This document shows positions 13,925 to 60,498 of a stretch of DNA of 64,000 nt, one piece after another (position 1 is the stretch's first letter; the number at the start of each line of letters is the position of its first letter). The DNA is from Planctomycetota bacterium (lineage in GTDB: Bacteria > Planctomycetota > UBA1135), in contig JBMYYH010000001.1 in the NCBI GenBank assembly GCA_049609225.1, positions 6,352-70,351 of the forward strand. The letters run 5' to 3'. The position numbers and the translations under genes were made by a program. The notes below the pieces were generated by a model, which saw only the letters and a list, made by a program, of their open reading frames with translations, had not been told where the DNA came from and did no database searches.

Positions 13925-14363
13925 CTGCCATCACCTCCAGCAATAACGCGGCTTGACCTCCGGGATCATCGGCTGCCATGGCGTGCTCGATAATTCCATC
14001 GGGACCGATCACGAATGTGTAACGCTGTGCATATTGGTCCCGCACATCCTTCACGGCACCGAAAGCGAGACATACGGAGCGGCTCTCGTCCGAAAGCAGC
14101 TGAAAAGGAAAGTCGAACTTGTTGCGGAATGCCGCATTCTCGGTGACAGCATCCACCGATACGCCGAAGACGAGGATGCCACGCTCCTCGAAATCCTGGA
14201 TTCGATCACGGAACCCTTGGCCTTGCTTCGTTCAGCCTGGGGTGTCTGCTTTCGGGAAGAACCACAGGACCGCCCGACGTCCGCGAAGATCCCCTGCGGT
14301 GACAGGGAATCTATTGCAGTCGAGGGCGGAGAAGTCAGGACAGGGAGAACCGGGGTTCAGCAT
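13914..14363 (-). CDS. bcp: Bcp-type peroxiredoxin with in-frame TGA (candidate selenocysteine) at the peroxidatic position
   Basis: Track ORFs 14232-14453(-) and 13914-14156(-) are in the same frame. Read-through gives MLNPGSPCPDFSAL...VLWFFPKADTPG[TGA]TKQGQGFRDRIQDFEERGILVFGVSVD..., aligning with the FYPKxxTPGCT motif. TGA at 14232-14234. Start ATG at 14363 chosen by alignment logic. Confidence 0.75.
14198..14216 (-). promoter_or_regulatory. candidate bacterial SECIS hairpin downstream of the bcp TGA
   Basis: The mRNA GGGUUC-CGUGAUC-GAAUCC forms a 6-bp stem (one G-U pair) with a 7-nt loop. It starts 16 nt after the UGA, and CC/GG pairing could extend the lower stem. Confidence 0.4.
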
Positions 14364-14406
14364 GGTCGGTGGGCCTTTAAGAAACCTGGAGAGGAAGGTG
14401 CGGAGC

Positions 14407-15069
14407 ATGGAAGCCTCGTCCCCTACGATAACGCCTGACATGCCGAAGCCCACCTTGCTCTACATCGCGGATCCCATGTGCAGCTGGTGCTGGGGATTCG
14501 CCCCGCAATTGCGGCGGATTCGCGAGGCCCTGCCGCATTTGCCGGTGCGGATCGTGCTTGGGGGCCTGGCGCCGGACACCGAGGAGCCCATGCCGTCGGA
14601 CATGCGCCGCTATGTGCAGCAGGCCTGGGACGCGGTGGAAACGACCGCAGGAGTCTCCTTCAATCGGGAGTTCTGGGATGGGCGGCATGCGGACATCCGG
14701 CGCTCCACCTACCCCGCTTGCCGCGCCGTAGTCCTGGCCCGCACGGAGGGCAAGGAGATGGCCATGTTCGATGCGATCCAACGCGCCTATTACCTCGAGG
14801 CGCGCAACCCGAGCCGTGCCGATGTCCTCGCGGACTGCGGCGAGGCCATCGGGTTGTCCTTGGGGCGGCAAACGTTCCTGGAATCCCTGCATGCATCGAC
14901 CACCCAATCCATGCTCGAGGCGGACCTGCAGTTGCGCGGTGCACTCGGCGCGAACACCTTTCCCAGCTTGGGGCTGATGGGTACGGGACTGCCCGAGCCA
15001 GGATTGGTCCTCCACCGCGGTTGGGGAACTGCGAAGGAGCTGGTGCCACGTCTCGAGGCGAGCCTCTAG
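14407..15069 (+). CDS. DsbA-family thiol:disulfide oxidoreductase-like protein
   Basis: Thioredoxin-fold motif LLYIADPMCSWCWGF (CxxC). Divergent from bcp. The long track ORF starting at 14119 was trimmed; start is 14407 or 14440. Confidence 0.8.
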   Translation: MEASSPTITPDMPKPTLLYIADPMCSWCWGFAPQLRRIREALPHLPVRIVLGGLAPDTEEPMPSDMRRYVQQAWDAVETTAGVSFNREFWDGRHADIRRSTYPACRAVVLARTEGKEMAMFDAIQRAYYLEARNPSRADVLADCGEAIGLSLGRQTFLESLHASTTQSMLEADLQLRGALGANTFPSLGLMGTGLPEPGLVLHRGWGTAKELVPRLEASL

Positions 15070-15078
15070 ACTGACGGC

Positions 15079-15534
15079 ATGGCCGTAAAAGCAGAGACCG
15101 TCCCCGCCTACCTCGACAGCCTCCCCGACGACCGCAAGGCCGCCATGAAGAAGCTGCGCACCGTGATCCGCAAGAACCTGCCGAAAGGGTTCAAGGAAGT
15201 CATCAACTACAACATGCCGTCGTGGGTCGTCCCGCATTCGAAATACCCGGATGGCTACCACTGCACTCCCGACCTGCCGCTGCCCTTCCTCGGCATGGCT
15301 TCGCAGAAGAACTTCATCGCGCTCTATCACATGGGCATCTACGCCGATGCCAAGCTGATGACCTGGTTCGAGAAGCAATGGCCCAAGCACATGAGCACCA
15401 AGCTCGATATGGGCAAGAGCTGCATCCGTTTCAAGAAGATCGAGACCATCCCCTACGATTTGATCGGCGAGCTGTTGGCGAAGATGTCGCCGGAGGCTTG
15501 GATCAAACTGTACGAGAAGAACGTCAAAGGTTGA
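15079..15534 (+). CDS. DUF1801 (YdhG-like) domain protein
   Basis: 151 aa. The pattern VPAYLDSLPDDRKAAMKKLRTVIRKNLP...FIALYHMGIY...CIRFKK resembles DUF1801-family proteins. Confidence 0.75.
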   Translation: MAVKAETVPAYLDSLPDDRKAAMKKLRTVIRKNLPKGFKEVINYNMPSWVVPHSKYPDGYHCTPDLPLPFLGMASQKNFIALYHMGIYADAKLMTWFEKQWPKHMSTKLDMGKSCIRFKKIETIPYDLIGELLAKMSPEAWIKLYEKNVKG

Positions 15535-15962
15535 TGCGGGATCCGGAACTGCTGCAGGAATTCGAGAGCGGCACGCTGGCTTTCGAGTTGTACCGGCAGC
15601 ATGTTTATCACGTGCGCATCGCCTACCTGCTGCTGCAACGGGATGGTTTCGAACTGGCGCTCCAGAACATGCGTCGATGCATCAAGGTGATGAACGAACG
15701 CAATGAAGTACCTGAGGGTCCGCGTTCGGGTTACAACGAGACCACGACGCATGCGCTGTTGTGGTTGATTCACGTCGTCATGCGGGGTCAAGGAGAGGCC
15801 TTTCCAGTTGCAGACAGCGCGGCGTTTTTCGACACGCATCCACAGTTGCACACCAAGCACATCCTGCGTTTGTTCTATTCGCCCGAGCGGCGGTTGGATC
15901 CACGGGCGAAGGCGGAGTTCCTGGAGCCGGACTTAGGTCCGTTGCCGCTGCTCAACGCCTGA
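15534..15962 (+). CDS. hypothetical protein
   Basis: ATG at 15534 overlaps the upstream stop (TGATG). 142 aa, MRDPELLQEFESGTLAFELYRQHVYHVRIAYLLLQ...; no family recognised. Confidence 0.5.
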   Translation: MRDPELLQEFESGTLAFELYRQHVYHVRIAYLLLQRDGFELALQNMRRCIKVMNERNEVPEGPRSGYNETTTHALLWLIHVVMRGQGEAFPVADSAAFFDTHPQLHTKHILRLFYSPERRLDPRAKAEFLEPDLGPLPLLNA

Positions 15963-41640: not shown

Positions 41641-41714
41641 AAGGATACCCCATATTGCCGGAACTGGCTGTTCGTTCCAGGGTTACGCCTTTGTCCGCTT
41701 CCCTAGCAGAGCCC

Positions 41715-43373
41715 ATGATCAAGACCCTAACGACGACCCTACTTTGTATTTCTGGCCTTACGGCAACCGCTGCAGCGCAAGGCCCACCCTTAATGCCGCC
41801 GCCCACGCCGCCGCAGAACCCATACACCGCAGAGAAGGCCGTCTTGGGCAAGATGCTGTTCTGGGAAGAGCAACTCTCCTCCGACGACACTATGGCTTGT
41901 GGAACTTGCCACACCGTGACTGCCGGTTTCGGCGATAACCGTATCGGCATCCACCCTGGCCCCGATGGCATCCAAGGCAACGCGGACGACATCTTCGCTT
42001 CCCGCGGTGTGCGTCGAGCGGACCATGATGGCAGTTATGCGGAAGATTCCACTTTCGGTTTGGATGTGCAAGTCACCGGCCGTCGTACGCCTGAAATTTT
42101 CGCGGCGCTTTATGCACCCGAGACCTTCTGGGATGGCCGTGGTACCTCCAGCTTCACCGACCCCGAAACTGGCATCGTCACCATTCCTTTCGGTGCTGCG
42201 CTCGAGAGTCAGGCTATCGGCCCGATCCTGAATGATGCTGAAATGGCGCATGAATCGGTGGATTGGGCGGAAGTCACGGCAAAGCTGGCCTCCGCACGCC
42301 CCATGGCCTTGGCCACCGATCTGACGCCCGACATGGTCGCGGCCCTACTCAGCTCCCCGACCTACCCAGAGTTGTTCCAGGATGCCTTTGGGACTTCCGA
42401 TATCACTGCGCAACGCATCGCTTATGCGATTGCCACCTACGAGCGCACTTTGATTCCGGATGAATCACCTTGGGATCTGTTCAATGCTGGCGATCCACTC
42501 GCCATGACTCCGAACCAGATCGCGGGCTGGAACCAGTTCAACACCATCGCGAACTGCAACCAGTGTCATACCCCGCCGATGTTCACGGACAACCAGTTCC
42601 ACAACCTCGGTTTGCGTCCGAGTACCGAAGACGCTGGCCGCCAAGACGTGACGGGGCTGTTCGCCGACCGCGGCAAGTTCAAGACTCCTTCGCTACGCAA
42701 CGCGGGCCTGCGTACTCGCTACTTCCACAACGGTTCCGAACTGATCCTCGACAACGGCCCGGCCCCGGGTGGTGTCGACATGGTTTACATCAATGGTGGT
42801 GGAGCCTTCCGCGACAATCTCGACCCATTGTTGGTCCCCCTGGCCGGACGCCCAGGCATCAACATGCAACAGATCATGGATTTCGTCGCAAACGGGCTGA
42901 CGGATCCACGCGTGGAAAACGCTCTGCCTCCGTTTGATAAGCCGACCCTTTTCAGTGAAGCGAATCCAGCCGGTGCCATCCGCTTCGGACCCTCCAACAT
43001 GGGCGGCAACGGCGTGACCCCGACCCTCATCGTGAACACTCCAGCAGCTCTGGGTAGTACTTCCTTTAAGGTAGGGCTGGAAAACGCGCCAGCCACTGCG
43101 AGCATCGCCTGGCTCGGCCTTTCCCGCGCTGCCGGCAGCGGCACCCTGGTGAATGGTGTGCCGTTCAACCTCGGTGGCCCGGTCGACCTGTGGAAGACCT
43201 CCTCCCTGCAGACGGATAGCTCCGGGCTCGGATACGCCACTTTCCAGATCGACATTCCCAGCCAAGCCGGCCTCCTAGGCATGGATTTCCACGTCCAGGC
43301 CTTCGTCGAAGACCTTTCGGCCCCTGGAGGCACCGGAGCCGCCACCCGCGGAGCCACTTTTACGGTGCTTTAA
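41715..43373 (+). CDS. di-haem cytochrome c peroxidase (CCP/MauG family) with recurrent C-terminal domain
   Basis: Signal peptide and two CxxCH motifs (ACGTCH, NCNQCH). CTD at about 43011-43370. Confidence 0.9.
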   Translation: MIKTLTTTLLCISGLTATAAAQGPPLMPPPTPPQNPYTAEKAVLGKMLFWEEQLSSDDTMACGTCHTVTAGFGDNRIGIHPGPDGIQGNADDIFASRGVRRADHDGSYAEDSTFGLDVQVTGRRTPEIFAALYAPETFWDGRGTSSFTDPETGIVTIPFGAALESQAIGPILNDAEMAHESVDWAEVTAKLASARPMALATDLTPDMVAALLSSPTYPELFQDAFGTSDITAQRIAYAIATYERTLIPDESPWDLFNAGDPLAMTPNQIAGWNQFNTIANCNQCHTPPMFTDNQFHNLGLRPSTEDAGRQDVTGLFADRGKFKTPSLRNAGLRTRYFHNGSELILDNGPAPGGVDMVYINGGGAFRDNLDPLLVPLAGRPGINMQQIMDFVANGLTDPRVENALPPFDKPTLFSEANPAGAIRFGPSNMGGNGVTPTLIVNTPAALGSTSFKVGLENAPATASIAWLGLSRAAGSGTLVNGVPFNLGGPVDLWKTSSLQTDSSGLGYATFQIDIPSQAGLLGMDFHVQAFVEDLSAPGGTGAATRGATFTVL

Positions 43374-43584: not shown

Positions 43585-45222
43585 ATGCGACTACCCATTC
43601 TTTGCACAACCCTGGCCGTGGCTGCCATCTTTGCTGGCAGTGCCAACGCTCAGCTCGGTCCGCCCCCGCAACCGCCCGAGAACCTCAGCACTCCTGAGAA
43701 GATTGTTCTCGGCAAGATTCTCTTCTGGGATGAGCAGCTCTCGTCCAACAACGAGACCGCCTGCGGTACCTGTCACATCCCGCGTTTCAGCTTTACCGAC
43801 AACCGCGAGTTCATCCACCCGGGTGCGGATGGCATCGTGGGTTCGCTGGATGACAACATCACTTCGCCAGGAGTGGTGCGGGCCAACGCGAACAAAAGCT
43901 TCGTCCCGACGCCATTGTTCGGCATGTCGCCACAGCTGACCCGTCGTCGTACCAACGACATCTTTGGTTCGCTCTACCAGGATCGCATCTTCTGGGATGG
44001 TCGTGCGGAAGACACCTTCCACGATCCGGAGACGGGTGCCGTCAGCATCGTGACAGGTGGCGCTTTGGAAAGCCAAGCCGTGGAGCCGATCATGTCGACG
44101 GTGGAAATGTCTCACATCGACCGCACTTGGGATGATGTGCGCGACAAGCTGACCGATGCGATCCCGCTGCGTCTTGCCACCGATATCCCACCGGATATGG
44201 CTGCTGCGATCGCCCTCGATCCGACTTACCCGGATCTGTTCGAAGCCGCTTTCGGCACGACCGACATCAACGCCGAGCGCATTGGTTTCGCGATTGCCGC
44301 CTACGAACGTGAACTGGTCCCGGACCAGACTCCATGGGACGACTTCATGAACGGCGACGCCAACGCTATGACTCCCGACCAGATTGATGGTTGGAACCAG
44401 TTCAACGGCATCGCCAACTGTCACCTCTGCCACACTCCTCCGATCTTCTCCGACGGCGATTTCCACAACAACGGCATGCGCCCGACCGTGTGGGATCCAG
44501 GTCTCCAAGAGACTACCGGCGATGTCAACGACCGCGGCAAGTTCAAGACTCCTTCCCTGCGTGGTGCTGGTCTGCGGACGAGCTTCTACCACGGTGGTTA
44601 CTTCCAAGAGCTTTGGCCGATCGGTGTGACCAACATCTACTGGGGTGGTGGCGGCGGATTCTCCGACAACCGCGACCCACTGCTGGTACCACTCATGAAC
44701 GTGCCTGGCATCGACATGGAGCACATCATGGATTTCGTCGGCAATGCGCTGACGGACCCACGTCTGGAAGCCGAGACCTTCCCCTTCGATAAGCCGACCC
44801 TGTTCTCGGAGCGCACGCCGTTCTCGACGAACCTTTACGGCGAGGCGAACCCAGGAGCTACGGGTGTGGAGCCAAAGATCACGGCGCACATGCCTGCGAT
44901 GCTCGGCGAGACCTTCCGTATTGCCGTCAGTGAAGGCAAAGGCGGTGTTCTGGCTCACTTCGGAGCTTCCGGTGCACCAGGTTCCGGCCTGATGCGCGGT
45001 GGTCGCATGATCAACATCGCGCTGCCGATGATGGAGTTCGTCACCCTGCCGTTGCCAGGCTCTGGCGATACCGACGGCTGGCGTTCGATCGAGTTCGTCA
45101 TTCCGGATCGCGCCAACCTCGTCGGCCGCAACTTCTACATGCAGTGGTGGGTCGAAGATACGGGAGCACCGGGTGGCGTCGCATCGTCGACCAAGGGTGC
45201 GATCATCGAGATCCTGCCTTAA
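43585..45222 (+). CDS. di-haem cytochrome c peroxidase paralog with recurrent C-terminal domain
   Basis: Collinear with the previous gene: TPEKIVLGKILFWDEQLSSNNETACGTCH and NCHLCH. CTD at about 44863-45219. Confidence 0.9.
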   Translation: MRLPILCTTLAVAAIFAGSANAQLGPPPQPPENLSTPEKIVLGKILFWDEQLSSNNETACGTCHIPRFSFTDNREFIHPGADGIVGSLDDNITSPGVVRANANKSFVPTPLFGMSPQLTRRRTNDIFGSLYQDRIFWDGRAEDTFHDPETGAVSIVTGGALESQAVEPIMSTVEMSHIDRTWDDVRDKLTDAIPLRLATDIPPDMAAAIALDPTYPDLFEAAFGTTDINAERIGFAIAAYERELVPDQTPWDDFMNGDANAMTPDQIDGWNQFNGIANCHLCHTPPIFSDGDFHNNGMRPTVWDPGLQETTGDVNDRGKFKTPSLRGAGLRTSFYHGGYFQELWPIGVTNIYWGGGGGFSDNRDPLLVPLMNVPGIDMEHIMDFVGNALTDPRLEAETFPFDKPTLFSERTPFSTNLYGEANPGATGVEPKITAHMPAMLGETFRIAVSEGKGGVLAHFGASGAPGSGLMRGGRMINIALPMMEFVTLPLPGSGDTDGWRSIEFVIPDRANLVGRNFYMQWWVEDTGAPGGVASSTKGAIIEILP

Positions 45223-45853: not shown

Positions 45854-48646
45854 ATGGACCAGAGCGCACGATCAACCGACCTGAACGACCTGCTGCAACA
45901 TGCGGGTTGGATTCAAGGCCTTGCCTACGCCACATTGCGCGACCATGCACTGGCGGAGGACGTCTCCCAGGAAGTCCTCCTGAAGGCGTTGCAGGGTCCA
46001 AAGCGTGGCGGCCGAGTCCTGCGGGCATGGTTGGCAGCAGTGACTCGCAACGAAGCCCGAAACACTTTGCGTGCTGCAAAGCGCAAAAGGGAACGTGAAC
46101 AGAGGGTGGCTCAGCAGGAGGGCGTGCATGCGGACCCGGCCTCCAGTGCAGAAATCTTGCAGGCTCATCAGGCTTTGACCAGAGCCATCGAAGGCCTCGC
46201 GACACCCCATCGCGAGATTCTCTTGATGCGCTTCTACCGGGAGATGTCTTTCCGCGCGATTGCAGACGATCTGGGTGCAACCGAGGGGACGGTACGGACA
46301 CGCCTCCACCGAGCATTGGCAGCTCTGCGACAAGCACTCCAACGGGAAGGCGGAGATTGGCGCGTCTCCTGCATTGCGCTCGTTCCGTGGTGGAAGTCTT
46401 CTCCATGGACTCCATCTCTTGCAACCCACGCGAGTCGATTGGGCTGGATGGCAGGAGCCTCGATCCTCGCTGTCGCATGCTTCGTTTGGATCATGCAACC
46501 GCCGTCCTCGCCGAGGGAAGACCCAATAGACCCCTTCGTAGTCGCCCTCGCAACCCTCGAGATGGAAGAAGCTCAAGTCGCGGCGATGCCACACCGTTCT
46601 GCTCTCGAGGAGGCGGATGATAGTGCTTTAGGGAACTCCAGCATGGCAGCCAGTGCATCGGGGGTGCGCTCTCGAGCACTCCTACATGGAATCCCTGTGC
46701 CGGGAGCATCCGTGTCCGCGTTCCAAGATGGCCAACTTCACCGAATTACCACCGATGATGCCGGCTTGTTCCAGGTGCCTTGCGATCCCGATCGTGTCGT
46801 GGGCTTGACGATCGTCTCCGAGCACGGTGCTCGCTCTCTGGAGCTCGAGATGAGGTACCGATCGAATATCGACTTGGTCGACCTTCACCAAGCACGTGGC
46901 ATCTTGCGGTTATCCGATGAAGGTGTCGATACACCCTCGGAACAGGTCCAGGCCGAGGTGCGCATCTACGTGGACTGGTCCGCCATGGCCTACTTGGCTC
47001 CGCCACGCGAGGAGTTCCTGGAGTTGGCCTTCGAAACGAGTGCGCCTTGCCCCGGCGAAGTCGAGATTCCGACTTGGTTGGCGGAGGTCTCCACCATCGT
47101 CGAAGTGGAGGCGCCCGGGTACCTGCCCTATCGTCAGTATTTCGAAGGCGGTCAAGGTGGTGATGGCACCATCTGGGCAGGTCTCTTTCCTGGGGAAGAA
47201 CGGGAGTTGCGCCTCGAAGACACGGATGGCCACCCCTTGGCTGAGTGCCCGGTCTACTTGGGCTTTCCTTGCGAGCTGGCTGGAGTGACGGACACAGAGG
47301 GCCATCTTCCTTCGATGACTTCCTGGGGACGCGGGGAAGACCCCAATGTGGCGAACCTTTTCACGGGAATCCTCCTCCGCCTCGAGGATGGCCGCCACTG
47401 GTTCAGTGGCAACCTCACGGGCCCGGGTGATTCCGTTTCCATCGACTTTGATACCGACGTCCTCGTGGTGGACACCAAACCGATTGAGGTGCACCTCCAG
47501 GACAAACCTCTCGGGGATGGCCAATCGATTCAAGTGATGAGTATGCATTCCGCTTTCGGAAGAGGGTTGCTCCGAGCGACCGGCTACACCTCCACTGGCT
47601 TGGTCGGATCCTCCGATTTCCTCGGCCCCTTGTGGCAAGACATCGCCCCTGGAGAAACCGTGGAGTTGACGGGAGGCATCTTCGGCCCGGGCTCTGCAGT
47701 GTTTGCACGTTTGCAGCCGTATGGCTGGTCTTTAGGGGAGTTCCCAATTGAAGAGAATCGCGCGCTAGTCCAAGCCACGCTCGTAGAGCAGGCTTTCTCG
47801 CTAGAGGGAGTGATCCCAGAGGATGGAGTCTCCTATTCCATTCACCTACGGCAGGATCGTTCCCTCATCGAGGCACAACTGCCCGTGGAGGGAGGCGAGG
47901 CCAAGGTCATGATTCCGGCGGGCATCTACACGGTGGAGGTGTGGAGGTCCGATGCCCAAGGCTCCCACCCTCTGCTCTTGGGTAATCCAAGGCACCCCTC
48001 CTTCTCTCGGCATGGACGCCTGGATGGTTCCCGTTGGATTCTGTCGACTACCGCATTCGATTGGCTTCCGACTAGAATCCTCGTCGACGGCCAGGCTGCC
48101 TTAGGCGGAATAGTTGGTGGACACCGCGTCGACCCGGACGGACGTGTCCTATTGCCATATACCAACGAAGGGGAGCCCTTCTTTCAAGGCATGAGGCTGG
48201 AACTTCCGGCAGCCGTTCACCAGGCGACCGGTGGCACGGTATTCCTGAACCATCATGGGCGCCAGGCCTCTCCCTTCGGCACGCATTCAATCGGCATGCA
48301 AGGGGAGCACGTCTTGGCTTTCACTCTCAGCCCGGTGGAATTGATGGTGCCAGCAAGTACTGCCGCCAATCCTCGAAACCTTTCAGTGTTCACACATCCA
48401 CTTGGCGAAACTGGGACCACCCATGCAATGACTGATGAGCCGATCTTTCCCCCACCTAAGCCAAACTCCTGGGGGCGATGGGGTTCTTTTGAGGTAAGCA
48501 ATGATGATCAAGTGTTCCGCCTTCGCCTCCCCCCTGGCCGGTACAAGGTCCGGTTGGGAGACTGGGGAGAGGTCGCTGCGACCTTCGGGGGAGATGATGG
48601 TTTCGAGGTCCTTCCAGGAGTCCTGGAAGTGGTCTATCCTGATTAG
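45854..48646 (+). CDS. ECF sigma factor fused to a TM helix and a ~700-aa extracytoplasmic domain
   Basis: Sigma region 2 (EDVSQEVLLKAL...RAWLAAVTRNEARNTLRA) and region 4 (HREILLMRFYREMSFRAIADDLGATEGTVRTRLHRALAALR). TM helix LGWMAGASILAVACFVWIM, then a long beta-rich region with CarboxypepD_reg-like segments. Confidence 0.8.
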   Translation: MDQSARSTDLNDLLQHAGWIQGLAYATLRDHALAEDVSQEVLLKALQGPKRGGRVLRAWLAAVTRNEARNTLRAAKRKREREQRVAQQEGVHADPASSAEILQAHQALTRAIEGLATPHREILLMRFYREMSFRAIADDLGATEGTVRTRLHRALAALRQALQREGGDWRVSCIALVPWWKSSPWTPSLATHASRLGWMAGASILAVACFVWIMQPPSSPREDPIDPFVVALATLEMEEAQVAAMPHRSALEEADDSALGNSSMAASASGVRSRALLHGIPVPGASVSAFQDGQLHRITTDDAGLFQVPCDPDRVVGLTIVSEHGARSLELEMRYRSNIDLVDLHQARGILRLSDEGVDTPSEQVQAEVRIYVDWSAMAYLAPPREEFLELAFETSAPCPGEVEIPTWLAEVSTIVEVEAPGYLPYRQYFEGGQGGDGTIWAGLFPGEERELRLEDTDGHPLAECPVYLGFPCELAGVTDTEGHLPSMTSWGRGEDPNVANLFTGILLRLEDGRHWFSGNLTGPGDSVSIDFDTDVLVVDTKPIEVHLQDKPLGDGQSIQVMSMHSAFGRGLLRATGYTSTGLVGSSDFLGPLWQDIAPGETVELTGGIFGPGSAVFARLQPYGWSLGEFPIEENRALVQATLVEQAFSLEGVIPEDGVSYSIHLRQDRSLIEAQLPVEGGEAKVMIPAGIYTVEVWRSDAQGSHPLLLGNPRHPSFSRHGRLDGSRWILSTTAFDWLPTRILVDGQAALGGIVGGHRVDPDGRVLLPYTNEGEPFFQGMRLELPAAVHQATGGTVFLNHHGRQASPFGTHSIGMQGEHVLAFTLSPVELMVPASTAANPRNLSVFTHPLGETGTTHAMTDEPIFPPPKPNSWGRWGSFEVSNDDQVFRLRLPPGRYKVRLGDWGEVAATFGGDDGFEVLPGVLEVVYPD

Positions 48647-48656
48647 GAACACCCTC

Positions 48657-48683
48657 TGTAACGGATTCGCTGCTGGCGGTGTA
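48657..48683 (+). promoter_or_regulatory. candidate ECF-type promoter upstream of second sigma-fusion gene
   Basis: TGTAACG-N13-CGGTGTA ends 10 nt before ATG 48694. Confidence 0.35.
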
Positions 48684-48693
48684 TTTCCTCCTG

Positions 48694-51486
48694 ATGGCAT
48701 CTGAATCCCTTCCCAACGACCCCGAAGAGATCCTCGAGCATTCCGGCTGGATCCGGCGGCTGGCATTCTCCACCCTTCGCGATCACGAGCTGGCGGAGGA
48801 CGTCTCCCAAGAGGTCTTGTTGAAGGCCCTTGCCGCCCCACGGCGATCTGGACGCATCCTGAAAGCATGGCTGGCGACTGTGACCTTTCATCAGGCGAAG
48901 AACTCACGACGAGGTGCTGTGAGGCGGTCGATCCGGGAAACCAAGGTAGCCGCCGAGCGCGCTGACCTGGAACCGCAGACCCCCGACTTACTCGCCATGC
49001 ACCGCGAGGTCCTCGATGCCGTTGGTGCCCTCGCACCACATTATCGCGAAGTCATCCGACTACGCTTCTTCGAGGACTGCTCCTTCCGGGAGATTGGAAC
49101 CAAGCTCGGACTTACCGAAGGGAATGCACGCGTTCGTCTCCATCGAGCACTGAAGGAACTGCGTGGGGTCATGGCTGGAGGTGGTAAGGATTGGCGTGCA
49201 AGTTGCCTCGCCCTTGCCCATTCCCTTCCCTCTGGCACCGCGACGACCCTCTCGACCAGCTGGTGGATGGTCGCTGCCGGCATTCTGCTCCTATGGTGTG
49301 GGTGGTGGAGTTGGAACTGGATACAGACTCCGGCGATGCCTTCCGGGGAAACTGCTCAATGGGCCACAGCCACCAAGGAGTCCCAGCAGGAGCCCCCAAC
49401 GGAGGCTGCCTCTTTAGAGAGCCTGCTCACGCGCGAGGTTCACAAGCCGACTCCAACCCAGTCGGAGGATCCCGCGCCCTCGGCAAGAACTGTTCTTATG
49501 CAGGGACAAGTCCTTGAAGCCGGCATGCCTGTCTCAAATGCAATAGTACGGGTATGGGATAAAGGCAATCTCTCGGAACTTGCGACGGATGAATCGGGCC
49601 TCTTCGAAATGAATGTCGACCCTGATTCTCGCCCAGCAGTCTCCGCCTATACAACTAAGGCATCGGCAAGCCGGACCTGGAGCAGTAAGGGCAGTCGACC
49701 GTACTACCTTCATTTGATCGAGTATCCGGCAGAAGGGCGAGTTTTCATGGTTCGCGACGAGATGACGGGAGGCCCCGTGAGTGAAGCGCAAGTCGAGGTC
49801 TTCGTGGATTGGGGGAATGGCGACCGAGAGACCGTCGGCGAAGATGGGCATCGCTTCCAAAAGGTCGGGGAAGGGAGGACGGACTCCACCGGAAACTTCC
49901 GCCTTCAAGGCTGGTTTCTTGGGCTACCGCTGGTCTTCAACACGGTGGCCTCTGGGTATTTCCCGGAACGCTTCGCAAGAGACCTCTTTCTTTGTCCTGG
50001 AATCACTAAGCCTATTCAGCTTCTGGATACAGACCAAAACCCCTTGGCGGATTGCCTCGTATGGACAGGGGAGCATTCCGGAACTCCACAGTCGACGGAT
50101 GCACTTGGCATGATTCCGAATGTGCAGAGTTGGGGACCCTCGCACATGACGTTCAAGGCCAACGGGCTCAGCGCCATGCCATCCAATCTGCTCCTACGCC
50201 TTCCCGATGGACGCTTCTGGTACGCCTCTAGCTATGAACATGAACCCAACACGGTGAGTGAATGGGAAGATCGCATCTGCGTAGTCGTCGACACGACCCC
50301 TCTGTCCATCCAAGCCGTGGACATGTCAATCCCTCCGGATTCTTGGGTAGAAGTTCGGCAAATTGTCCCAGATGGCTACTACCCGAAAGGGCTAGACACG
50401 CGGGAAGGATTGGTCTGGCATCGAGTCGACCAAGGCGAATCGACGACCCTCCCTTCTGGCATCCTCGGCCATTTCACGGAGGTCCAGGCCAGGATCATGC
50501 CGCAGGATTGGTATCTTGGCGAATTCCCGATTGTCGACCACAAAGCCATCATCGACCAACAACTTTGCAGCCTGACCGTGACCCTGGAGGCCGATTCACA
50601 AACCCTCAAGAAACCTCTTCTACTCTTCGTGAATCAAAGGAGTAAACCACTTCGAAGCGTGCCCGTGGTAAATGGTGTAGCCACAATCCAAGTTCCATTC
50701 CGGGAGGAGTCGAAACGAAGCTACCCCGACCATTTCTTTAACTACAAACTCTCCGTCCAAGACACCTCAACCGGCAAGCTGATCCTTCTTCAATACCCGG
50801 AAGGTGACCAAGCTTCTGACAAAATTTCTCTTCAGCCCGGCCAGGAGCAGATGCAGGTGACCCTGCGCGCCAGCACCTCCAGCTGGTTACCACTCCAAGT
50901 ACGTGTGAATGGCATTCCTGTAGAAGGAGGCACCTTAAACAGGCAGCCGATCGGCCTAGACGGCATGACGCGCATCTTGCAGGGCGCAAACGGAGAAGTC
51001 GAGCTCACCCACCTTGGCCTCAGCCTCCCGACTCAGCTGCGGTCTTCCGACATGCCTCCCCTGCTCCGCTCCATGAACCTCCAGAATCACAGGGATCATT
51101 TCCCCACTATCCAGGAGCAAGGTGGTCTCCATTTCATTGATGTCGAACTGGCTACCGTAGAACTCTTGATTACCCAGGATGTCGCAGGCAAGCTTCTCGG
51201 AGAAAAGACCGGTCGCCTCGGCTCATGGATTCGCCATTGGCCGACCTGGGAAAACTCCGATCCCTGGGAGTTCATAAAGACACCCTCCACAGAAGGCTGG
51301 TTCCCTTTCCGTGTGCCTGCCGGTCGATACCGCTTTAGCGTTGGCGAGAAGACCTATGGCGACGAAGGAGGGACAGAGTTCGCACCCGGCACGATCACTA
51401 GGCTGTATCCCAATGAGGAAACGGAGCCGCCGGATTCCTCCACTCTCCGAAGCCAAGAGCACTCCTCCCCTGCCTCGCCGAAGTAG
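48694..51486 (+). CDS. ECF sigma factor fused to a TM helix and a ~700-aa extracytoplasmic domain (tandem paralog)
   Basis: Collinear with the previous gene: EDVSQEVLLKAL...KAWLATVTFHQAKNSRR, YREVIRLRFFEDCSFREIGTKLGLTEGNARVRLHRALKELR, and TM helix WWMVAAGILLLWCGWWSW. Shared external blocks (LLRLPDGRFWY vs LLRLEDGRHWF). Confidence 0.8.
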   Translation: MASESLPNDPEEILEHSGWIRRLAFSTLRDHELAEDVSQEVLLKALAAPRRSGRILKAWLATVTFHQAKNSRRGAVRRSIRETKVAAERADLEPQTPDLLAMHREVLDAVGALAPHYREVIRLRFFEDCSFREIGTKLGLTEGNARVRLHRALKELRGVMAGGGKDWRASCLALAHSLPSGTATTLSTSWWMVAAGILLLWCGWWSWNWIQTPAMPSGETAQWATATKESQQEPPTEAASLESLLTREVHKPTPTQSEDPAPSARTVLMQGQVLEAGMPVSNAIVRVWDKGNLSELATDESGLFEMNVDPDSRPAVSAYTTKASASRTWSSKGSRPYYLHLIEYPAEGRVFMVRDEMTGGPVSEAQVEVFVDWGNGDRETVGEDGHRFQKVGEGRTDSTGNFRLQGWFLGLPLVFNTVASGYFPERFARDLFLCPGITKPIQLLDTDQNPLADCLVWTGEHSGTPQSTDALGMIPNVQSWGPSHMTFKANGLSAMPSNLLLRLPDGRFWYASSYEHEPNTVSEWEDRICVVVDTTPLSIQAVDMSIPPDSWVEVRQIVPDGYYPKGLDTREGLVWHRVDQGESTTLPSGILGHFTEVQARIMPQDWYLGEFPIVDHKAIIDQQLCSLTVTLEADSQTLKKPLLLFVNQRSKPLRSVPVVNGVATIQVPFREESKRSYPDHFFNYKLSVQDTSTGKLILLQYPEGDQASDKISLQPGQEQMQVTLRASTSSWLPLQVRVNGIPVEGGTLNRQPIGLDGMTRILQGANGEVELTHLGLSLPTQLRSSDMPPLLRSMNLQNHRDHFPTIQEQGGLHFIDVELATVELLITQDVAGKLLGEKTGRLGSWIRHWPTWENSDPWEFIKTPSTEGWFPFRVPAGRYRFSVGEKTYGDEGGTEFAPGTITRLYPNEETEPPDSSTLRSQEHSSPASPK

Positions 51487-51502: not shown

Positions 51503-52186
51503 TCAAGAACACTTCTTGATCCAGTATTTATCCAAGAAGATCAAGGTCGTAAATCCGACGGCGGCGATGCCGAATGCGATCTCCAGGCCATCTTGAACCT
51601 TGCCGATCATGATGGCGCGGCCGGTGAGGAAGGCCATGATGAACCAAAGCGGGCGTCGCCACCAGATCAGGACTCGCAGCCTGGCAACATTGGCCTTTTC
51701 GATGATGTCCGGTCGGTTCTTGTGTTGGCCCCAACCGCCGATGCCGGAAGTCACCGGCATAAGTTCCGAAACCAGGGCAATCAAGCACACCGCGAATCCG
51801 ACGTCTTTCCATAACGCATAGGCAAAGGCCAACAAGCAGACACCGTGGTGGATGACGAGGTCCTTACGCGGAATGATGCTGCGACTCATGCGCCCGTAGA
51901 GCATCCACACGAAGTCGGAGAGGATGTGTGCGAGCACCACCAACATCCCGTGCCACATCCAAAGATCGCCCAGGGACTGCTCGGGATAGTGCCGGTAAAG
52001 ATAGGCCTGATCCCAGTGTTGGATGCCGACGATGGCTGCTGCGATGCCGATGCCAGTCAGGATTGCGGCAGCGATGCCGCGCGATAATTTGAAGGCTCGG
52101 TGATACTCGTGAACGACGCGCCCGAGGAACCAGGCGTGCACCGCAACGAAGAATGCGGTGTAGATCGAAAGCAGCAGAAGTAGCAC
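51503..52186 (-). CDS. multi-pass membrane protein (possibly TLC-like), function unknown
   Basis: 227 aa with about 6 hydrophobic helices and an HH motif (DLVIHHGVCLLAF). Assignment is tentative. Confidence 0.55.
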   Translation of the reverse strand: MLLLLLSIYTAFFVAVHAWFLGRVVHEYHRAFKLSRGIAAAILTGIGIAAAIVGIQHWDQAYLYRHYPEQSLGDLWMWHGMLVVLAHILSDFVWMLYGRMSRSIIPRKDLVIHHGVCLLAFAYALWKDVGFAVCLIALVSELMPVTSGIGGWGQHKNRPDIIEKANVARLRVLIWWRRPLWFIMAFLTGRAIMIGKVQDGLEIAFGIAAVGFTTLIFLDKYWIKKCS

Positions 52187-52239: not shown

Positions 52240-55200
52240 ATGTCCCCCCCATGGAAGGCAACCCTAGCCTTCCTTTGCTTTGCCACATCCCCTACCTCGT
52301 GGCTCAGCGCTCAGGAAAGCGAACCCCGTGAAACCCTGCTTCAGAGCGACTTGGAAGTCGTTGAAGGAGTGGCGGAGAACTTTGTGCATGTCGACCCTGC
52401 CGCTGCAGGTTGGCGCACGGAGGTCCTGCACGATGGTGCCAAGGCTGGACTGAAACATCTGTTCGCTTGGATCGCAAAGGATAAGGAGCTACCGCAAGAA
52501 CTCTTCGCCGATGGGTTCCTAAGCACGGAGTTTCGCCCGGAAGAATTGGAGACCGTGTTCCAGGATGGCGCCTTGTCTGTACGTCAAGCGCATGCGATCG
52601 CGGAACGGACCTACTCCTCCCAAGAGTTGGGGCAAGCTGCCGCCACGCTGAAGGCACAGTTCGCATCGGGAGAACAACGGGATGCCTTCTTCAAGATCAT
52701 CACGGTGGAGATGCAGAGTTCGCATGTGGTGCAGACGCAGTTCCTCTACCACGCGGCGATTGCAGCAGATCCATTCGTCACGCAGGTGAACCTGGAAGGC
52801 GTAGCGACATGGGAGATCGGCGCGGACGACGAAGCCGTTTCGATGGCTTCGCTTGCGGTGCATCATTACGAAGAACTCGTCACTTCAAGGCCGACCTTTG
52901 AAGACATCACCACTTCCGTCTTCGGCAAGACCAAGCGTTGGAAGCCCGAGATGATGGTGGGCGTGGATCAGCTGATGAACCGCAATGACCGCCTCATCGG
53001 CATGAGCTTCGTAGGCAGCCAAGGCATTGCCGTCGGCGATGTCAATGGTGATGGACTCGACGACCTCTACGTCGCGCAACAGGGTGGCCTGCCGAACCGG
53101 CTATATCTGCATCAAGCCGATGGCACCGTCGTCGAAGCTGCGCGCGATGCCCAGATTGATTTCCTCGACAACACGCGGGGAGTCCTGTTGGTCGACCTCG
53201 ACAATGATGGTGACCAGGATCTGGTCTCGACCGTGCGCGCCAACCTGGTGCTGGCCTACAACAACGGCAAAGGCGTCTTCGCCGAACGCAAGATCCTGCG
53301 CTACAACGACGTCGCCGACATCTACTCGATCACGGCCGCGGACCCCGATGGCGATGGAGACCTGGATCTCTACGCATGTCGCTATGTCACGGGTGGCCTG
53401 GTCGGCGGTGTACCGACTCCCTATCACGATGCCGAGAACGGAGCGACCAACTTCTACTGGCGCAATGAAGGCAATCGAGAGTGGCGCGAAGTCACGAATC
53501 TCGTCGGCTTAGGGCAGAACAACACAAAGTTCAGTCTCGGCGCATGCTGGGAAGACATCGACAACGATGGCGACGTCGACCTGTACGTCGCGAATGACTT
53601 TGGGCGTAACAACCTGTACATCAATGATGGTCATGGGCAGTTCAAGGATGAAGCCGTGGCGCGGGGTGCGGATGACATCGGCGCGGCCATGGGTGCGAGC
53701 ATCGCGGATGTCGATGATGACGGGGACTTGGACATCCTGGTGACCAACATGTTCAGTTCGGCAGGGCGTCGGATCGCCACGCAGAGCGACATGTTCATGG
53801 ATGGTGAAGCGCAGGAACTGCACAAGGACTATGTGCGACACGCCCGCGGCAACACCCTGTTGTTGAACCATGGAGATGGCAACTTCACCGATGCGACCGA
53901 GACTTCGGGAATCGCCATCGGTGGTTGGGCATGGGGTGCGCAATTCGTCGACATCAACAACGATGGCCTCGAAGACATCTACTCCCCCAACGGCTTCCTC
54001 ACCAACACCAACTCCGACGATTTGTGAAGTTTCTTCTGGCGGCGCGTGACGTCGCAATCTCCAGCTTCCGGATCCGACCCCACCGACGCCTATGCCGATG
54101 CATGGGCCAGCATCGCACACCTCGTTGCGGTCGAAGGCATGTCCTGGAGCGGACGCGAACGCAACCGCATGTTCCTCTCCGTCGGCAACAACAAGTTCGT
54201 CGATGCGAGCTCCGTCGCCGACCTCGACTTCCTGGAAGACGCACGCGCGCTCGCCCAGCTCGATTGGGATGGAGATGGTCGCGTGGATCTGCTGTTGCGC
54301 AATCGCAATGCCCCACGCTTGCGCCTCCTGCGAAACCGCGGCCCGGAGCAAGCCCATTGGATGCAGGTGCAGCTGGTCGGCACTGGCAAATCCAATCGCG
54401 ACGCCATCGGTGCCCGCGTCACCCTCAAGACCGCAAAGGGTGAAGAGCAACGCAACCTACGCGCCGGCGAAGGATTCCTGTCGCAGAACTCCAAGACCCT
54501 GTTCTTCGGTTTGGGTGATACCGAGGTCGTCGACAGCGTTGCGGTGCGCTGGCCCGACGGCACCGTGGAAGAGTTCCCACTCGGCACCATCAACAGCCGC
54601 ATTCGCTTGACTCAAGGCAAGGCTGAAGTCGAGAGCATCGATGTCGTCCGCCCGGGTCGCTTGGCCGCGATGCCACAGGAAGCACCGACCTCCCCCGATC
54701 TGGGGCGTGTCACGGTCATCACCAAACTGCCGATGGAGGAGTTCCCGATCCCTTCCTGGGAGAACCCGGAGCGCAAGGTCAAGGATCTCGCCGGCCGCCC
54801 GTTATTGATCAACTTCTGGTCGACGACCTGTGCATCCTGCATTGAGGAGTTCGAACAGATTCGCCTGAAGCGGAAGAACCTCAACCGCCGGGGGCTGCAA
54901 GTGGTCACCCTGCTGACCGATGGCCCCGAGGCTGAAGTGAAAGCGCGCACGATCCTGAAGGCCGTGCAGCTCGATCGCATGGGCGGCCGCGCTACGGAAA
55001 CGCACACCGAGGCGATGCGGTTTCTGATTGAGGAAATCCTGGGCCGCTCCATCGATATGCCCCTGCCCGTGAGCCTGTTGCTGGATGAACGCGGGCAGTT
55101 GGTGCAGATTCATATCGGCGCCCTCAAGATGCAGGGGTTGATCCGCGACCTCGGCATCCTCGACAAGATGGATCCGAAGAACCCCTCCGCCAGCCCCCTA

Positions 55201-55341
55201 GCTTTCGGCCGACGCCTCGCTTTCGCCGACCGCAGCTTCAATCGCCTCGCCGGGCGTTTCCAAGTAGCCGGCATGCATCACTTGGCGCTGTACTTCGCCA
55301 AGTTCCAGGACCGCTTCCAGCAGCCTAAGGCGCAACACTAG
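52240..55341 (+). CDS. CRTAC1/ASPIC-family FG-GAP repeat protein with UnbV_ASPIC and C-terminal TlpA-like thioredoxin domain; in-frame TGA (candidate selenocysteine) at 54025-54027
   Basis: Track ORFs 52240-54027 and 54046-55341 are in the same frame. Signal peptide and FG-GAP/VCBS repeats (GDVNGDGLDDLYV, DLDNDGDQDLV, DIDNDGDVDLYVAN, DVDDDGDLDILVTN, DINNDGLEDIYSPNGF). Then ...NSDDL[TGA]SFFWRRVTSQSP... followed by the UnbV_ASPIC region (DWDGDGRVDLLLRNRNAPRLRLLRN...SNRDAIGARV...GEGFLSQNS) and LINFWSTTCASCIEEF. Confidence 0.7.
54036..54064 (+). promoter_or_regulatory. candidate bacterial SECIS hairpin downstream of the CRTAC1-like TGA
   Basis: CUGG-CGGCG-CGUGA-CGUCG-CAAUCU-CCAG: lower 4-bp stem, upper 5-bp stem (one G-U pair) and 5-nt loop. 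The loop starts 18 nt after the UGA. Confidence 0.35.
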
Positions 55342-58320: not shown

Positions 58321-58789
58321 CGATTCCTCCTGAAATGGGGCTTCGCGCCCACTTTACCCCTCTTTTTGGGGGAGCCTGAAGAGAATATCCACAGAATCCT
58401 GAAAATCCTGGAACTCAACTGGCCCTGAGCCCATCCCATGAATGAAGCAAGTAGGTGTTGCCGTCATCGATTCATCCAGGGGGCTGGCGGCAGGATCAAC
58501 TTGCTTCTTTTTTTGCCGCTGAAGGCACGAACCTCCCCTCGGTGGTGAACCCGGACCGCAGCTGAAACATCCCCGCCCCCTGGGCTCCTTTCCCATCTGG
58601 GGTTTGTTTCGCGCGATTTGGTCCGAGTCATTCTGATGCGGCCTAGCAATTTTCTTTGCTAGGCATCCCAGAACTCCTGTATCGTTGAGAAATGCCCCAA
58701 ATGGGCGTTGGAATGCTCCGGGGATTCAAAACCCTGATTGCGTTATTCCCGTTTTGACAAGGTCCTCTCCTTGCCTTGCAAATAGACCT

Positions 58790-59938
58790 ATGGCACTTTC
58801 TCTTCCCTTTTGCACTGCGATTGCCGCGGCATTGACGGCCAGCTCTGCGCTTGGCTCGCCCTTGCAACTCAACTTGGAGATTGAAGAAATCTACACCCCA
58901 AAGGCGGAGGCCGAAATCTCCTCCTTTTCGGGTTGGAGTGTGATTAATCCTCTGGGGGACATCCTCGGCAATGGCAGGCCAACGGTTCTAATTGGCGGAG
59001 AGGACATAGAGAATTGGAGCACGTATGACTTGATCCAGTTCACATCCGGACCGGGAACTAGAGGCCTTGAGTTTCGGATACCTCAATTCGTTACCTATCA
59101 AGCCCTTGGGCTCTGGTGGGAACCATCCCTAACTTTGCTAAAGACTCCCTCTGGGTTTCAGGCGGTCATTAACCGATTCCCATACGCTTTGGAGTTCCTG
59201 GATTTCCCGAATGGCACGTCTAGATCCGTGTTGAATCCGCTGCCCCCCAATCCAGGAGACGCTCCCCAACTTGGGTGGGAGGGCATTTGGAATGCAGGTG
59301 ACCTCAATCAAGATGGCTTTGATGACTTGTTTTTCCAAGCACATTCTTCCGGCCTATTTGATGGGTACACGGGAATGATTGACGGGTCTTCCATGCAGGT
59401 GGTTTGGAGGAATTATTCGCACTGGGACAGCCAAGTTCGGCCTGTCACACCGGACCCAACCTCTGGTTTTTCCGATTTCAATGGAGATGGGGTAAGAGAC
59501 TTTGTCTCCGGTTGGCTTCAAGTACTCCCTCCATTTACACATGGGACCAAACACTTAATCGCACATTCGGGCAGTGATGGATCGATTATCTGGGAAAGCA
59601 ACGTTGGGACTGGATCTCGATTTGGTGTTTCAGGGCGAGACCTTAACACCGACGGAATTCCAGATATTGTTACCGTTGGACTCCCAACAGAAATTTTTGC
59701 TGTGAGTGGCGCCGATGGACTACCCATTTGGTCCTTACATATTTCCTCAGTAGCTCCACTCATCCCCGCAACCGGAACGAACCCGTTCTTCAACATTACC
59801 GTTTTCTTCGAGGACAGCACCAATCCGATTTCCTCCGACACCGTTTCCGTTGTCGTCAGCCTGCAGACCGGTGCCACCCCAGGGGATGAACATTTCGTCG
59901 CCACGTTAAGGGAAACGATGGGTTGCCTCTTTCCGTAA
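58790..59938 (+). CDS. FG-GAP/VCBS repeat secreted protein, N-terminal part (probably disrupted by a frameshift)
   Basis: Signal peptide MALSLPFCTAIAAALTASSALG. Repeats GDLNQDGFDDLFF, SDFNGDGVRDFV and RDLNTDGIPDIVTVG. Ends at TAA 59936-59938, with the continuation open in another frame. Confidence 0.6.
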   Translation: MALSLPFCTAIAAALTASSALGSPLQLNLEIEEIYTPKAEAEISSFSGWSVINPLGDILGNGRPTVLIGGEDIENWSTYDLIQFTSGPGTRGLEFRIPQFVTYQALGLWWEPSLTLLKTPSGFQAVINRFPYALEFLDFPNGTSRSVLNPLPPNPGDAPQLGWEGIWNAGDLNQDGFDDLFFQAHSSGLFDGYTGMIDGSSMQVVWRNYSHWDSQVRPVTPDPTSGFSDFNGDGVRDFVSGWLQVLPPFTHGTKHLIAHSGSDGSIIWESNVGTGSRFGVSGRDLNTDGIPDIVTVGLPTEIFAVSGADGLPIWSLHISSVAPLIPATGTNPFFNITVFFEDSTNPISSDTVSVVVSLQTGATPGDEHFVATLRETMGCLFP

Positions 59939-60498
59939 CGCCATTCCCGCAGTCGCTTTCCCCATGGCTGCCTGACCCTGTTGAGCCGAATAACAATCAG
60001 CCATTTTTGGTTGGGGATTGGGATCGAGACGGTCTTACCGAAATTGCTACCTACTTCGATACACCGAGCTTCGATCCCAACGGCTTCTGGCCAGCTGGCT
60101 CGGCCTTTACGCTTGCCGTGCTGGGAAGACCCACGATTGAGGTGCCGGGGAGTCACTCCATAGGGCAAACTAACCAGATCTCTTTTGAGATCCCTTCGGC
60201 TGCCGGCATGGTCGCTCAACTTGTAATCTCATCTGGGTTTGATTCCTCAGGCGGCGTGACGATTGATCATTGGCCTACGAACCTTAGCAATGATGCTTTT
60301 TTGACTTGGAGCCGCAATCAGCCACTCCTAACTTCTCTCGATGTGGACGGGAAAGGTTCCATCGACTTCACTATCCCCAATAACCCCAGCTTTATCGGAA
60401 CCGAAGTTTTTCTCCGGGGGATCGTTTGGGAACCAGCATTCCCTTTCACTAAGGTCTGGACGATGTCCACCTTAGGCAAGACTATCGTTACCAACTAG
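59923..60498 (+). CDS. FG-GAP repeat protein, C-terminal part carrying the recurrent C-terminal domain
   Basis: This frame is open from 59890 and contains a further repeat (VGDWDRDGLTEIATY) plus the CTD (about 60130-60495). No signal peptide of its own. Confidence 0.5.
   Translation: MPLSVTPFPQSLSPWLPDPVEPNNNQPFLVGDWDRDGLTEIATYFDTPSFDPNGFWPAGSAFTLAVLGRPTIEVPGSHSIGQTNQISFEIPSAAGMVAQLVISSGFDSSGGVTIDHWPTNLSNDAFLTWSRNQPLLTSLDVDGKGSIDFTIPNNPSFIGTEVFLRGIVWEPAFPFTKVWTMSTLGKTIVTN

Follow-up and report, generated by a model that had tools for sequence, protein, structure and literature searches.

Split ASPIC/FG-GAP genes have been listed as selenoprotein candidates by Kim et al. (2016; PLoS One, PMC4807772, S9 Table), with three candidates in planctomycete P1, one in P2, and Gly at the position in question in the closest hit; bSECISearch was positive in three of the four, the host genomes carry selA, selB and selD, and the main text of the paper (PMC4807772) is silent on them. 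Here we describe a gene of this kind at 52240-55341 (+ strand) of a 64,000-nucleotide stretch from a Planctomycetota bacterium (GenBank assembly GCA_049609225.1, contig JBMYYH010000001.1, positions 6,352 to 70,351 of the forward strand), the whole of which is called the window below. Like the Kim candidates, it has the same domain pair, comes from the same phylum, and consists of two adjacent annotated genes split by an in-frame UGA; those candidates are given as a table row only, without alignment, structure, a thioredoxin or CxxC link or a survey of distribution, and their orthology to the window gene at the exact column is presumed. Comparison of related sequences shows a recoded UGA, a hairpin resembling a selenocysteine insertion sequence (SECIS), and a single predicted product, exported, that carries CRTAC1-like and thioredoxin domains on one chain. 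We consider it very probable that UGA 54025-54027 encodes selenocysteine (Sec), which would make the gene one exported selenoprotein of about 1033 residues. An earlier note, written from the letters of the window alone, had read the locus as an exported selenoprotein of roughly 1030 residues, and that reading is supported by the conservation of the TGA at 44 other sites, by covariation in the hairpin and by the co-occurrence of a CxxC motif.

The recoding mechanism would be the standard bacterial one, and the family is essentially undescribed. A 2026 review that covers over 110 families of prokaryotic selenoproteins does not include it, it is absent from deep-Sep supplementary files and from what the deep-Sep and BSepDB papers say in their main texts, and a search of the literature on selenoproteins with FG-GAP, ASPIC, UnbV, VCBS or CRTAC1 gave nothing relevant in main texts. 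What is unusual about the family is its size and beta-propeller scaffold, together with the scarcity of Cys homologs. The rarity of Cys at the Sec column runs counter to the rule that Cys homologs of selenoproteins are abundant, a point relevant to the design of selenoprotein searches, and the scarce Cys counterparts may be the reason that the family went unreported in searches built on Cys/Sec pairs.

Planctomycetes, Verrucomicrobia and Bacteroidota have CRTAC1/ASPIC proteins in very large numbers, and we know of no function assigned to these bacterial proteins. In murine CRTAC1 (9etn), as in the window protein, an FG-GAP propeller is followed by a UnbV_ASPIC domain. CRTAC1 differs in lacking the Sec, the thioredoxin domain and the N-terminal domain of about 250 residues; the sequence identity is about 18%, and the profile alignment to 9etn stops short of the Sec-bearing helix. 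The TlpA/ResA reductases share with the C-terminal domain of the window protein a thioredoxin fold, a CxxC, an invariant proline and an exported setting. Selenoproteins of the 'UGC-containing TlpA family' are different, since the Sec of the window protein lies about 270 residues upstream, in another domain and outside the CxxC.

The in-frame UGA and its conservation

The first part of the gene is an open reading frame (ORF) of 595 aa (52240-54027) whose stop is TGA 54025-54027. The frame stays open past this TGA through 54028-55338 (437 codons) and closes with TAG 55339-55341, which agrees with the earlier note in placing two ORFs in one frame on either side of the TGA. Read through, the complete selenoprotein gene comprises 1033 codons plus the TAG in one frame with one internal TGA, and the UGA is codon 596. 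The junction peptide reads ...NTNSDDL-stop-SFFWRRVTSQSP, or with longer upstream context ...NGFLTNTNSDDL-stop-SFFWRRVTSQSP, and with the UGA taken as Sec (residue 596) it contains the motif D-L-U-S-F-F-W-R. In the NCBI annotation, the window gene is a 595-residue 'FG-GAP repeat domain-containing protein' treated as complete; in public databases many homologs are likewise cut into a truncated 'FG-GAP repeat protein' and a headless ASPIC/thioredoxin fragment. The title of the earlier note spoke of a 'second' in-frame TGA; a 'first' one was not identifiable in the window, and scans of the window for split ORFs and for a TGA followed by a hairpin gave no second convincing case. A same-frame run of three segments at 13953-15962 was considered as a split selenoprotein and rejected, as ordinary genes occupy another frame there.

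Among the 120 best database homologs, 43 (46-100% identity, 575-656 residues) stop exactly at the Sec column, ending in ...D[LV]. The remaining 77 are full-length (about 770-1430 aa), span 94-98% of the product of the window gene and read through the junction as D-L-x-S-F-F-W-R-R-V, with the SFFWR that lies just after the TGA conserved. All 77 carry FG-GAP and ASPIC on a single chain, and the split is therefore no natural gene boundary, as had been argued from the domain content. We then aligned the junction by tblastn in a locus set made of one genome per species (L001-L080) and metagenomes (L081-L160). This gave 44 further sites with a stop at the aligned column, and the stop was TGA in 44/44, never TAA or TAG. 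Together with the window, TGA is found at 45/45 sites, and 83 to 886 codons follow in the open frame where the contig is long enough. Host lineages comprise Planctomycetota, Phycisphaerae, Verrucomicrobiales, Akkermansiaceae, Roseibacillus, the acidobacterium Ca. Multivorans, and unclassified bacteria or metagenome contigs. The terminal stops of the same genes are mixed (TAG 15, TGA 14, TAA 8). A change of genetic code was rejected, as TGA terminates 13 of the 36 Pfam-supported window genes; the use of TGA as an ordinary stop in these 13 indicates the standard code.

In two loci, tandem paralogs each carry an in-frame TGA (L019, at 200 and 7819; L098, at 1197 and 4357), indicating that some genomes hold several copies, in agreement with the three reported for planctomycete P1 in 2016. 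A further locus (L100, ~1540-2300) has a Sec-form gene that seems frameshifted, with its ASPIC/thioredoxin part (CAAC) in another frame; the frame changes past a TGA that lies 169 codons beyond the Sec, probably through an assembly error.

That the window TGA is itself a sequencing or assembly error, as might be feared of a metagenome-assembled genome, is scarcely conceivable, since 3788 nt, with the TGA among them, are identical in an independent Logan assembly of run SRR27204695, and the same TGA occurs at 44 other sites in unrelated samples.

The TGA could also be a genuine terminator, either between two head-to-tail genes (one FG-GAP, the other ASPIC-thioredoxin) or in a pseudogene with a nonsense mutation. 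Gene callers and NCBI do treat the 595-aa product as complete, a second ORF could start at GTG 54046, and no Sec machinery is visible in the window. GTG 54046 is, however, the earliest possible start codon after the TGA, and the conserved SFFWRR sits between the two, so that it would be untranslated if a second gene started there. Such a second gene would also lack a signal peptide despite the extracytoplasmic types of its domains. The identical column is always TGA at 45 sites in at least three phyla, with a frame that always continues, whereas the real stops of these genes use all three codons, and a nonsense mutation would not survive in proteins as far apart as 46% identity. The conserved stop that is always TGA, the open frame and the translated-through SFFWRR exclude a nonsense mutation, an assembly error and a gene boundary for practical purposes, and we regard termination at this codon as very improbable.

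The hairpin and the residue at the Sec column

A SECIS-like hairpin of 17 nt (54039-54055, +) begins 11 nt after the UGA, with the stem at 54039-54044 / 54050-54055 and the loop (CGUGA) at 54045-54049. The loop begins at the 18th nucleotide after the UGA, where the earlier note had placed it. Numbered from the U of the UGA as 1, the 6-bp stem is formed by 15-20 / 26-31. Minimum free energy (MFE) folds of the 54-63 nt after the UGA gave the same hairpin in nearly all sites, with a GGUCG loop in most loci and CGUGA in the clade of the window. In the MFE folds of the window and L001 a weak outer helix surrounds the hairpin (54026-54068, +; 54026-54031 / 54063-54068); it is confined to the closest relatives and is absent in L081 and more distant loci.

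The same helix was recovered by RNAalifold from 32 in-register sequences (-9.8 kcal/mol). In these, 97.9% of cells are paired and 14 are compensatory; pair 18-28 is AU in 15, GU in 11 and GC in 5 sequences, and pair 20-26 is AU in 22, GC in 9 and GU in 1. Of 500 shuffles, none equalled the real alignment in percentage of pairing, number of compensatory cells or covariation score, and structures shifted by one to three columns scored much lower. The switch at pair 20-26 is coupled with an amino-acid change from R-Q-V-V to R-R-V-[T/A], suggesting that the RNA constrains the protein. In other subfamilies, a hairpin with a GGUC loop is kept on different stems that encode different peptides: GCGCAC-GGUC-GUGCGC with WRTVVR, GCGCGC-GGUC-GCGCGU with WRAVAR, GGGCGUC-GGUC-GACGCUC with FEGVGRR, and GCGC-GGUC-GCGC with MSAVAH. 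Applied to all 41 sequences at once, RNAalifold returned a meaningless consensus (-0.14 kcal/mol), because the registers of the subfamilies differ by one nt (5-nt versus 4-nt loop).

Like the minimal SECIS of E. coli fdhF and the bacterial SECIS consensus, the window element is a small hairpin within the coding sequence, right after the UGA, with a 6-bp stem and a loop of 4-5 nt starting with G[G/U] across the family; it differs in that its stem has no bulged U and in that the loop of the window clade is CGUGA and not GGUCG. A length of 17 nt, an offset of 11 nt and a GGUC loop are what we take to be the layout of the minimal fdhF element. The earlier note had left SECIS prediction as a check, and we judged the hairpin by the bSECISearch model as published (PMC13188914), in which the apical loop has 3-9 nt and the upper stem 4-16 bp, a G stands at loop position 1 or 2, the UGA-to-loop distance is 16-37 nt, and the MFE is at or below -7.5 kcal/mol. 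The window hairpin (5-nt loop CGUGA, 6-bp stem, loop position 2 a G with a U after it, spacing of 17 nt, -9.0 kcal/mol) lies within all four criteria of that model.

At the Sec column, the 77 full-length homologs have E in 29, D in 15, S in 11, C in 5, R, G and A in 4 each, N and Q in 2 each, and H in 1. The five Cys forms are P0041, P0069, P0098, P0112 and P0114, with DLCSFFWRQVV in the last four; TGC codons were confirmed in L161, L162 and four tandem DYCTTFWRH paralogs of L026. The expectation that homologs would have Cys in place of Sec thus holds in so far as Cys forms exist (5/77), and fails in that they are a minority among forms dominated by E, D and S.

The C-terminal CxxC was found in all 31 Sec forms that have a complete C-terminal half (at least 350 residues), in each case as a single motif 226-291 residues past the Sec (mostly 260-290), and was intact in only 7 of the 76 non-Sec full-length homologs, two of these seven being Cys forms, although the sequences behind these counts are not phylogenetically independent. 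The other non-Sec homologs have SxxS, DxxS, HxxG, GxxC and similar residues at the site. The association of Sec (or Cys) with an intact CxxC is nevertheless strong; the motif, which the earlier note had noticed, travels with the Sec.

One Cys form (L161, 4909-4945; TGC) keeps CPNC and has an identical hairpin, GGCGACAGGUCGUGUCGC, after the TGC, as if a recent change from Sec to Cys had left a fossil SECIS behind. In the Cys form of L162 the hairpin has decayed and YPSS replaces the CxxC. In locus L099 (~1870-2129) the Sec form is short and lacks the thioredoxin domain; the gene that comes after it is a separate, lipoprotein-like one that carries CQPC, and the contig breaks off within it. A rough neighbour-joining tree placed 42 of the 43 truncated database homologs and the window protein in one clade, with the other column states clade-specific. 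The divergent Sec subfamilies seen in the loci indicate that several deep branches have Sec.

Several results weigh against reading the UGA as Sec or against the chemistry proposed below. We detected no selA, selB, selC or selD in the 64-kb window (Pfam on all main ORFs, ARAGORN, Rfam), which contains no tRNA by ARAGORN and no Rfam family, and ARAGORN found no tRNA-Sec in 42 related loci; some Planctomycetes do carry selA, selB and selD (PMC4807772). Clustering of ORFs across 40 Sec-form loci revealed no shared partner gene. Taken alone, the window hairpin is no better than shuffles (z -0.60; 51 of 200 fold at least as well), so its significance comes from comparison with other loci. The peptide WR[QR]VV dictates much of the stem, and the signal from synonymous recoding is modest (mean z -1.26 for Sec forms versus -0.35 for non-Sec forms, with 43/45 Sec forms below the recoded mean) because the peptide encodes most of the stem; the case for a SECIS therefore rests on the compensatory changes tied to amino-acid switches and on the recurrence of the hairpin in other peptides. 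Four of ten non-Sec sites also fold a hairpin, namely L161, L092 (D), L017 (E) and, weakly, L162. Finally, most non-Sec relatives have E, D or S and rarely Cys at the column, which is unusual for a catalytic Sec.

These points bear in part on a reading in which the UGA is recoded by something other than Sec, either through read-through by a near-cognate tRNA (Trp, Cys or Arg) aided by the hairpin, or as a regulated mixture of 595-aa and 1033-aa products. The column does tolerate E, D, S, G, A and R in relatives, and hairpins located 3' of stop codons can stimulate read-through. The hairpin is nevertheless specific to the SECIS type in its fixed 11-nt spacing and its small loop starting with G[G/U], often GGUC, and the strict co-occurrence with CxxC and the Cys of sister forms point to a chalcogen residue. 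Since bSECISearch also finds a SECIS in three of the four ASPIC/FG-GAP candidates from Planctomycetes with selA, selB and selD, we hold this reading to be improbable, if a little less so than termination.

Architecture and possible chemistry of the protein

With the UGA read as Sec, the product is laid out as a signal peptide, an N-terminal domain, an FG-GAP beta-propeller of calcium-binding type, Sec596, one more blade, a UnbV/ASPIC domain and a thioredoxin domain that resembles TlpA/ResA and has CASC. The probable Sec-type signal peptide (residues 1-24, MSPPWKATLAFLCFATSPTSWLSA, followed by QE; 52240-52311, +) was recognised by inspection and a hydropathy window: K6 precedes a hydrophobic stretch in which the 9-residue Kyte-Doolittle mean reaches 2.27, and the ortholog consensus has a comparable N-terminus. 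The same two approaches revealed no hydrophobic, signal-peptide-like stretch in the first 20 residues after the TGA, consistent with the claim that only the first ORF has a signal peptide. The domain of about 240 residues that follows (residues ~25-262; 52312-53025) has no Pfam or NCBIfam match; W58, E61, L63, H64, A67 and K68 are invariant in 29 orthologs, and the region is predicted as a confident alpha/beta domain in the model of homolog P0112 described below.

Propeller blades of the FG-GAP and FG-GAP_3 types, with DxDxDG-type motifs, cover 53026-54024 (+; Pfam PF13517 E 2e-37 over five stretches, PF01839 for one FG-GAP repeat). An extra FG-GAP_3 blade lies past the Sec-bearing helix (54151-54294, +; PF13517, residues 42-89 of the C-terminal half), followed by the UnbV_ASPIC domain (54403-54579, +; PF07593 E 1.3e-19), which aligns to murine CRTAC1 9etn. 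Propeller and UnbV_ASPIC are thus on one chain once the UGA is read through. The C-terminal thioredoxin-fold domain spans 54739-55137 (+) and matches Pfam AhpC-TSA with 28.7 bits (cut-off 26); Redoxin scored 21.5 bits in the second part, under its cut-off of 26.6. Over the 140 C-terminal residues, the family profile searched against the PDB found TlpA 1jfu (E 1.2e-12) along with several structures of ResA. The CxxC is CASC, residues 864-867 (54829-54840, +), and P943 (55066-55068, +), predicted to occupy the cis-proline position of a thioredoxin fold, is invariant in the 69 sequences of alignment A4. These matches confirm the TlpA-like domain that the earlier note had seen at the C-terminus. 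In NCBIfam, the N-terminal half had no match and the C-terminal half matched only ResA/TlpA models, far below cut-off (NF047696, TlpA: 36.2 bits against 230; NF002854, ResA: 38.7 against 170), indicating that the window domain is a family-level relative and not an ortholog.

The structure was modelled on the Cys homolog P0112, a form with both Cys and CxxC, and not on the window protein, using AlphaFold2 with 87 aligned sequences (predicted local distance difference test, pLDDT, 91.4; predicted template modelling score, pTM, 0.92). In the model, Cys644 at the Sec column is predicted to be the first residue of a helix (644-654) right after a strand (639-642). This strand-residue-helix setting is typical for reactive thiols and selenols. 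The top solved match of the model in Foldseek was murine CRTAC1 9etn_A (E 9.7e-24, TM 0.73, target-normalised), and in the fold search the thioredoxin domain was matched by ResA-type oxidoreductases.

The conserved Sec and its co-occurrence with a fused CxxC give a concrete and testable clue to redox chemistry in one large branch of the CRTAC1/ASPIC proteins. In the mechanism we propose, SelB with Sec-tRNA would bind the hairpin and insert Sec at UGA 54025-54027. The selenol, carried on the propeller/ASPIC body, would attack an oxidised periplasmic substrate (a peroxide, a disulfide or a sulfoxide, for example). This would leave a selenenic acid or a selenenylsulfide, to be resolved by the CxxC of the fused domain, which would then be reduced again by an electron shuttle in the membrane, of the CcdA/DsbD type. 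We lean slightly towards such a relay, in which the fused CxxC domain recycles the selenol. Redox enzymes fused to their own thioredoxin-type reductant include the MsrA/B-thioredoxin and peroxiredoxin-glutaredoxin hybrids, and GPx is an example of a Sec enzyme. By analogy, the resemblance of the window protein to these would consist of a Sec or Cys at a helix N-terminus and a CxxC on the same chain that possibly recycles it. It differs from the Msr, peroxiredoxin and GPx enzymes in that a beta-propeller, instead of a thioredoxin, peroxiredoxin or Msr fold, bears the putative catalytic residue.

As to the chemistry, the chief alternative, suggested by the E and D at the column, is that Sec is inserted and serves as a ligand of a metal or metalloid, or forms a single-turnover or structural selenylsulfide, with the thioredoxin domain keeping the site reduced or loading it in the manner of TlpA. 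TlpA is a reductant for copper-site assembly, and it is the best solved-structure sequence match of the C-terminal domain. The relatives have mostly E or D, typical ligands of hard metals, in a propeller rich in DxDxDG calcium motifs, and about 70% of predicted Sec-ligand interactions involve metals (2026 review). Against this, the sequence contains no second or third conserved soft ligand (Cys, His) near the Sec, the other conserved Cys being only those of the CxxC and the structural Cys of YACRY, and the predicted place at a helix N-terminus after a strand, with a CxxC partner, would be the classic arrangement of a thiol oxidoreductase. We therefore judge a ligand or structural role to be unlikely, but a good deal less so than any of the readings in which Sec is not inserted.

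Returning to the redox relay, a wider reading that we put forward only tentatively, as possible and on balance doubtful, is that Sec and CxxC mark an unrecognised class of extracytoplasmic selenoenzyme with a CRTAC1-type beta-propeller as scaffold, a class of ancient standing in the Planctomycetota-Verrucomicrobiota lineage and outside it, of which the many E, D and S forms with a degenerate CxxC would be derivatives without redox function. If true, this would open a first biochemical way into the ASPIC/CRTAC1 family of bacteria, which is very large, and would add a case of a selenoprotein family whose Cys counterparts are few.

Neighbouring genes in the window

Upstream of the selenoprotein gene there are two tandem genes for di-haem cytochrome c peroxidases (CCP_MauG; 41655-43373 and 43585-45222, +). 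The tandem arrangement is kept in L001 and L081, and a CCP_MauG gene adjoins the Cys form in L162. Since no neighbour is conserved in the 40 Sec-form loci, the link to peroxidases is only a hint towards peroxide or oxidant chemistry. A 2025 paper (PMC12758564) describes CRTAC1-family genes of other bacteria that have homologs of hydrazine-synthase subunits on their flanks, and the gamma subunit of hydrazine synthase resembles di-haem peroxidases.

A DsbA-like ORF with CSWC (...LLYIADPMCSWCWGF...) is located at 14119-15069 (+), within 2 kb of sequence whose real genes are hard to tell from the long ORFs that overlap on both strands. Downstream of the selenoprotein gene, at 58685-60498 (+), an FG-GAP ORF (58685-59938) overlaps an ORF in another frame without a Pfam match (59923-60498), an arrangement that could be a frameshift, a pseudogene or two genes. 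Between the peroxidase genes and the selenoprotein gene, 45854-48646 and 48679-51486 (+) encode tandem proteins of about 930 residues, each with regions 2 and 4 of an extracytoplasmic function (ECF) sigma-70 factor at the N-terminus and with a long extension that matches CarboxypepD_reg weakly. Divergent from the selenoprotein gene lies an ORF of 227 aa without a Pfam match (51503-52186, -), which is conserved beside the selenoprotein gene in L001 (81% identity) and L081 (53%).

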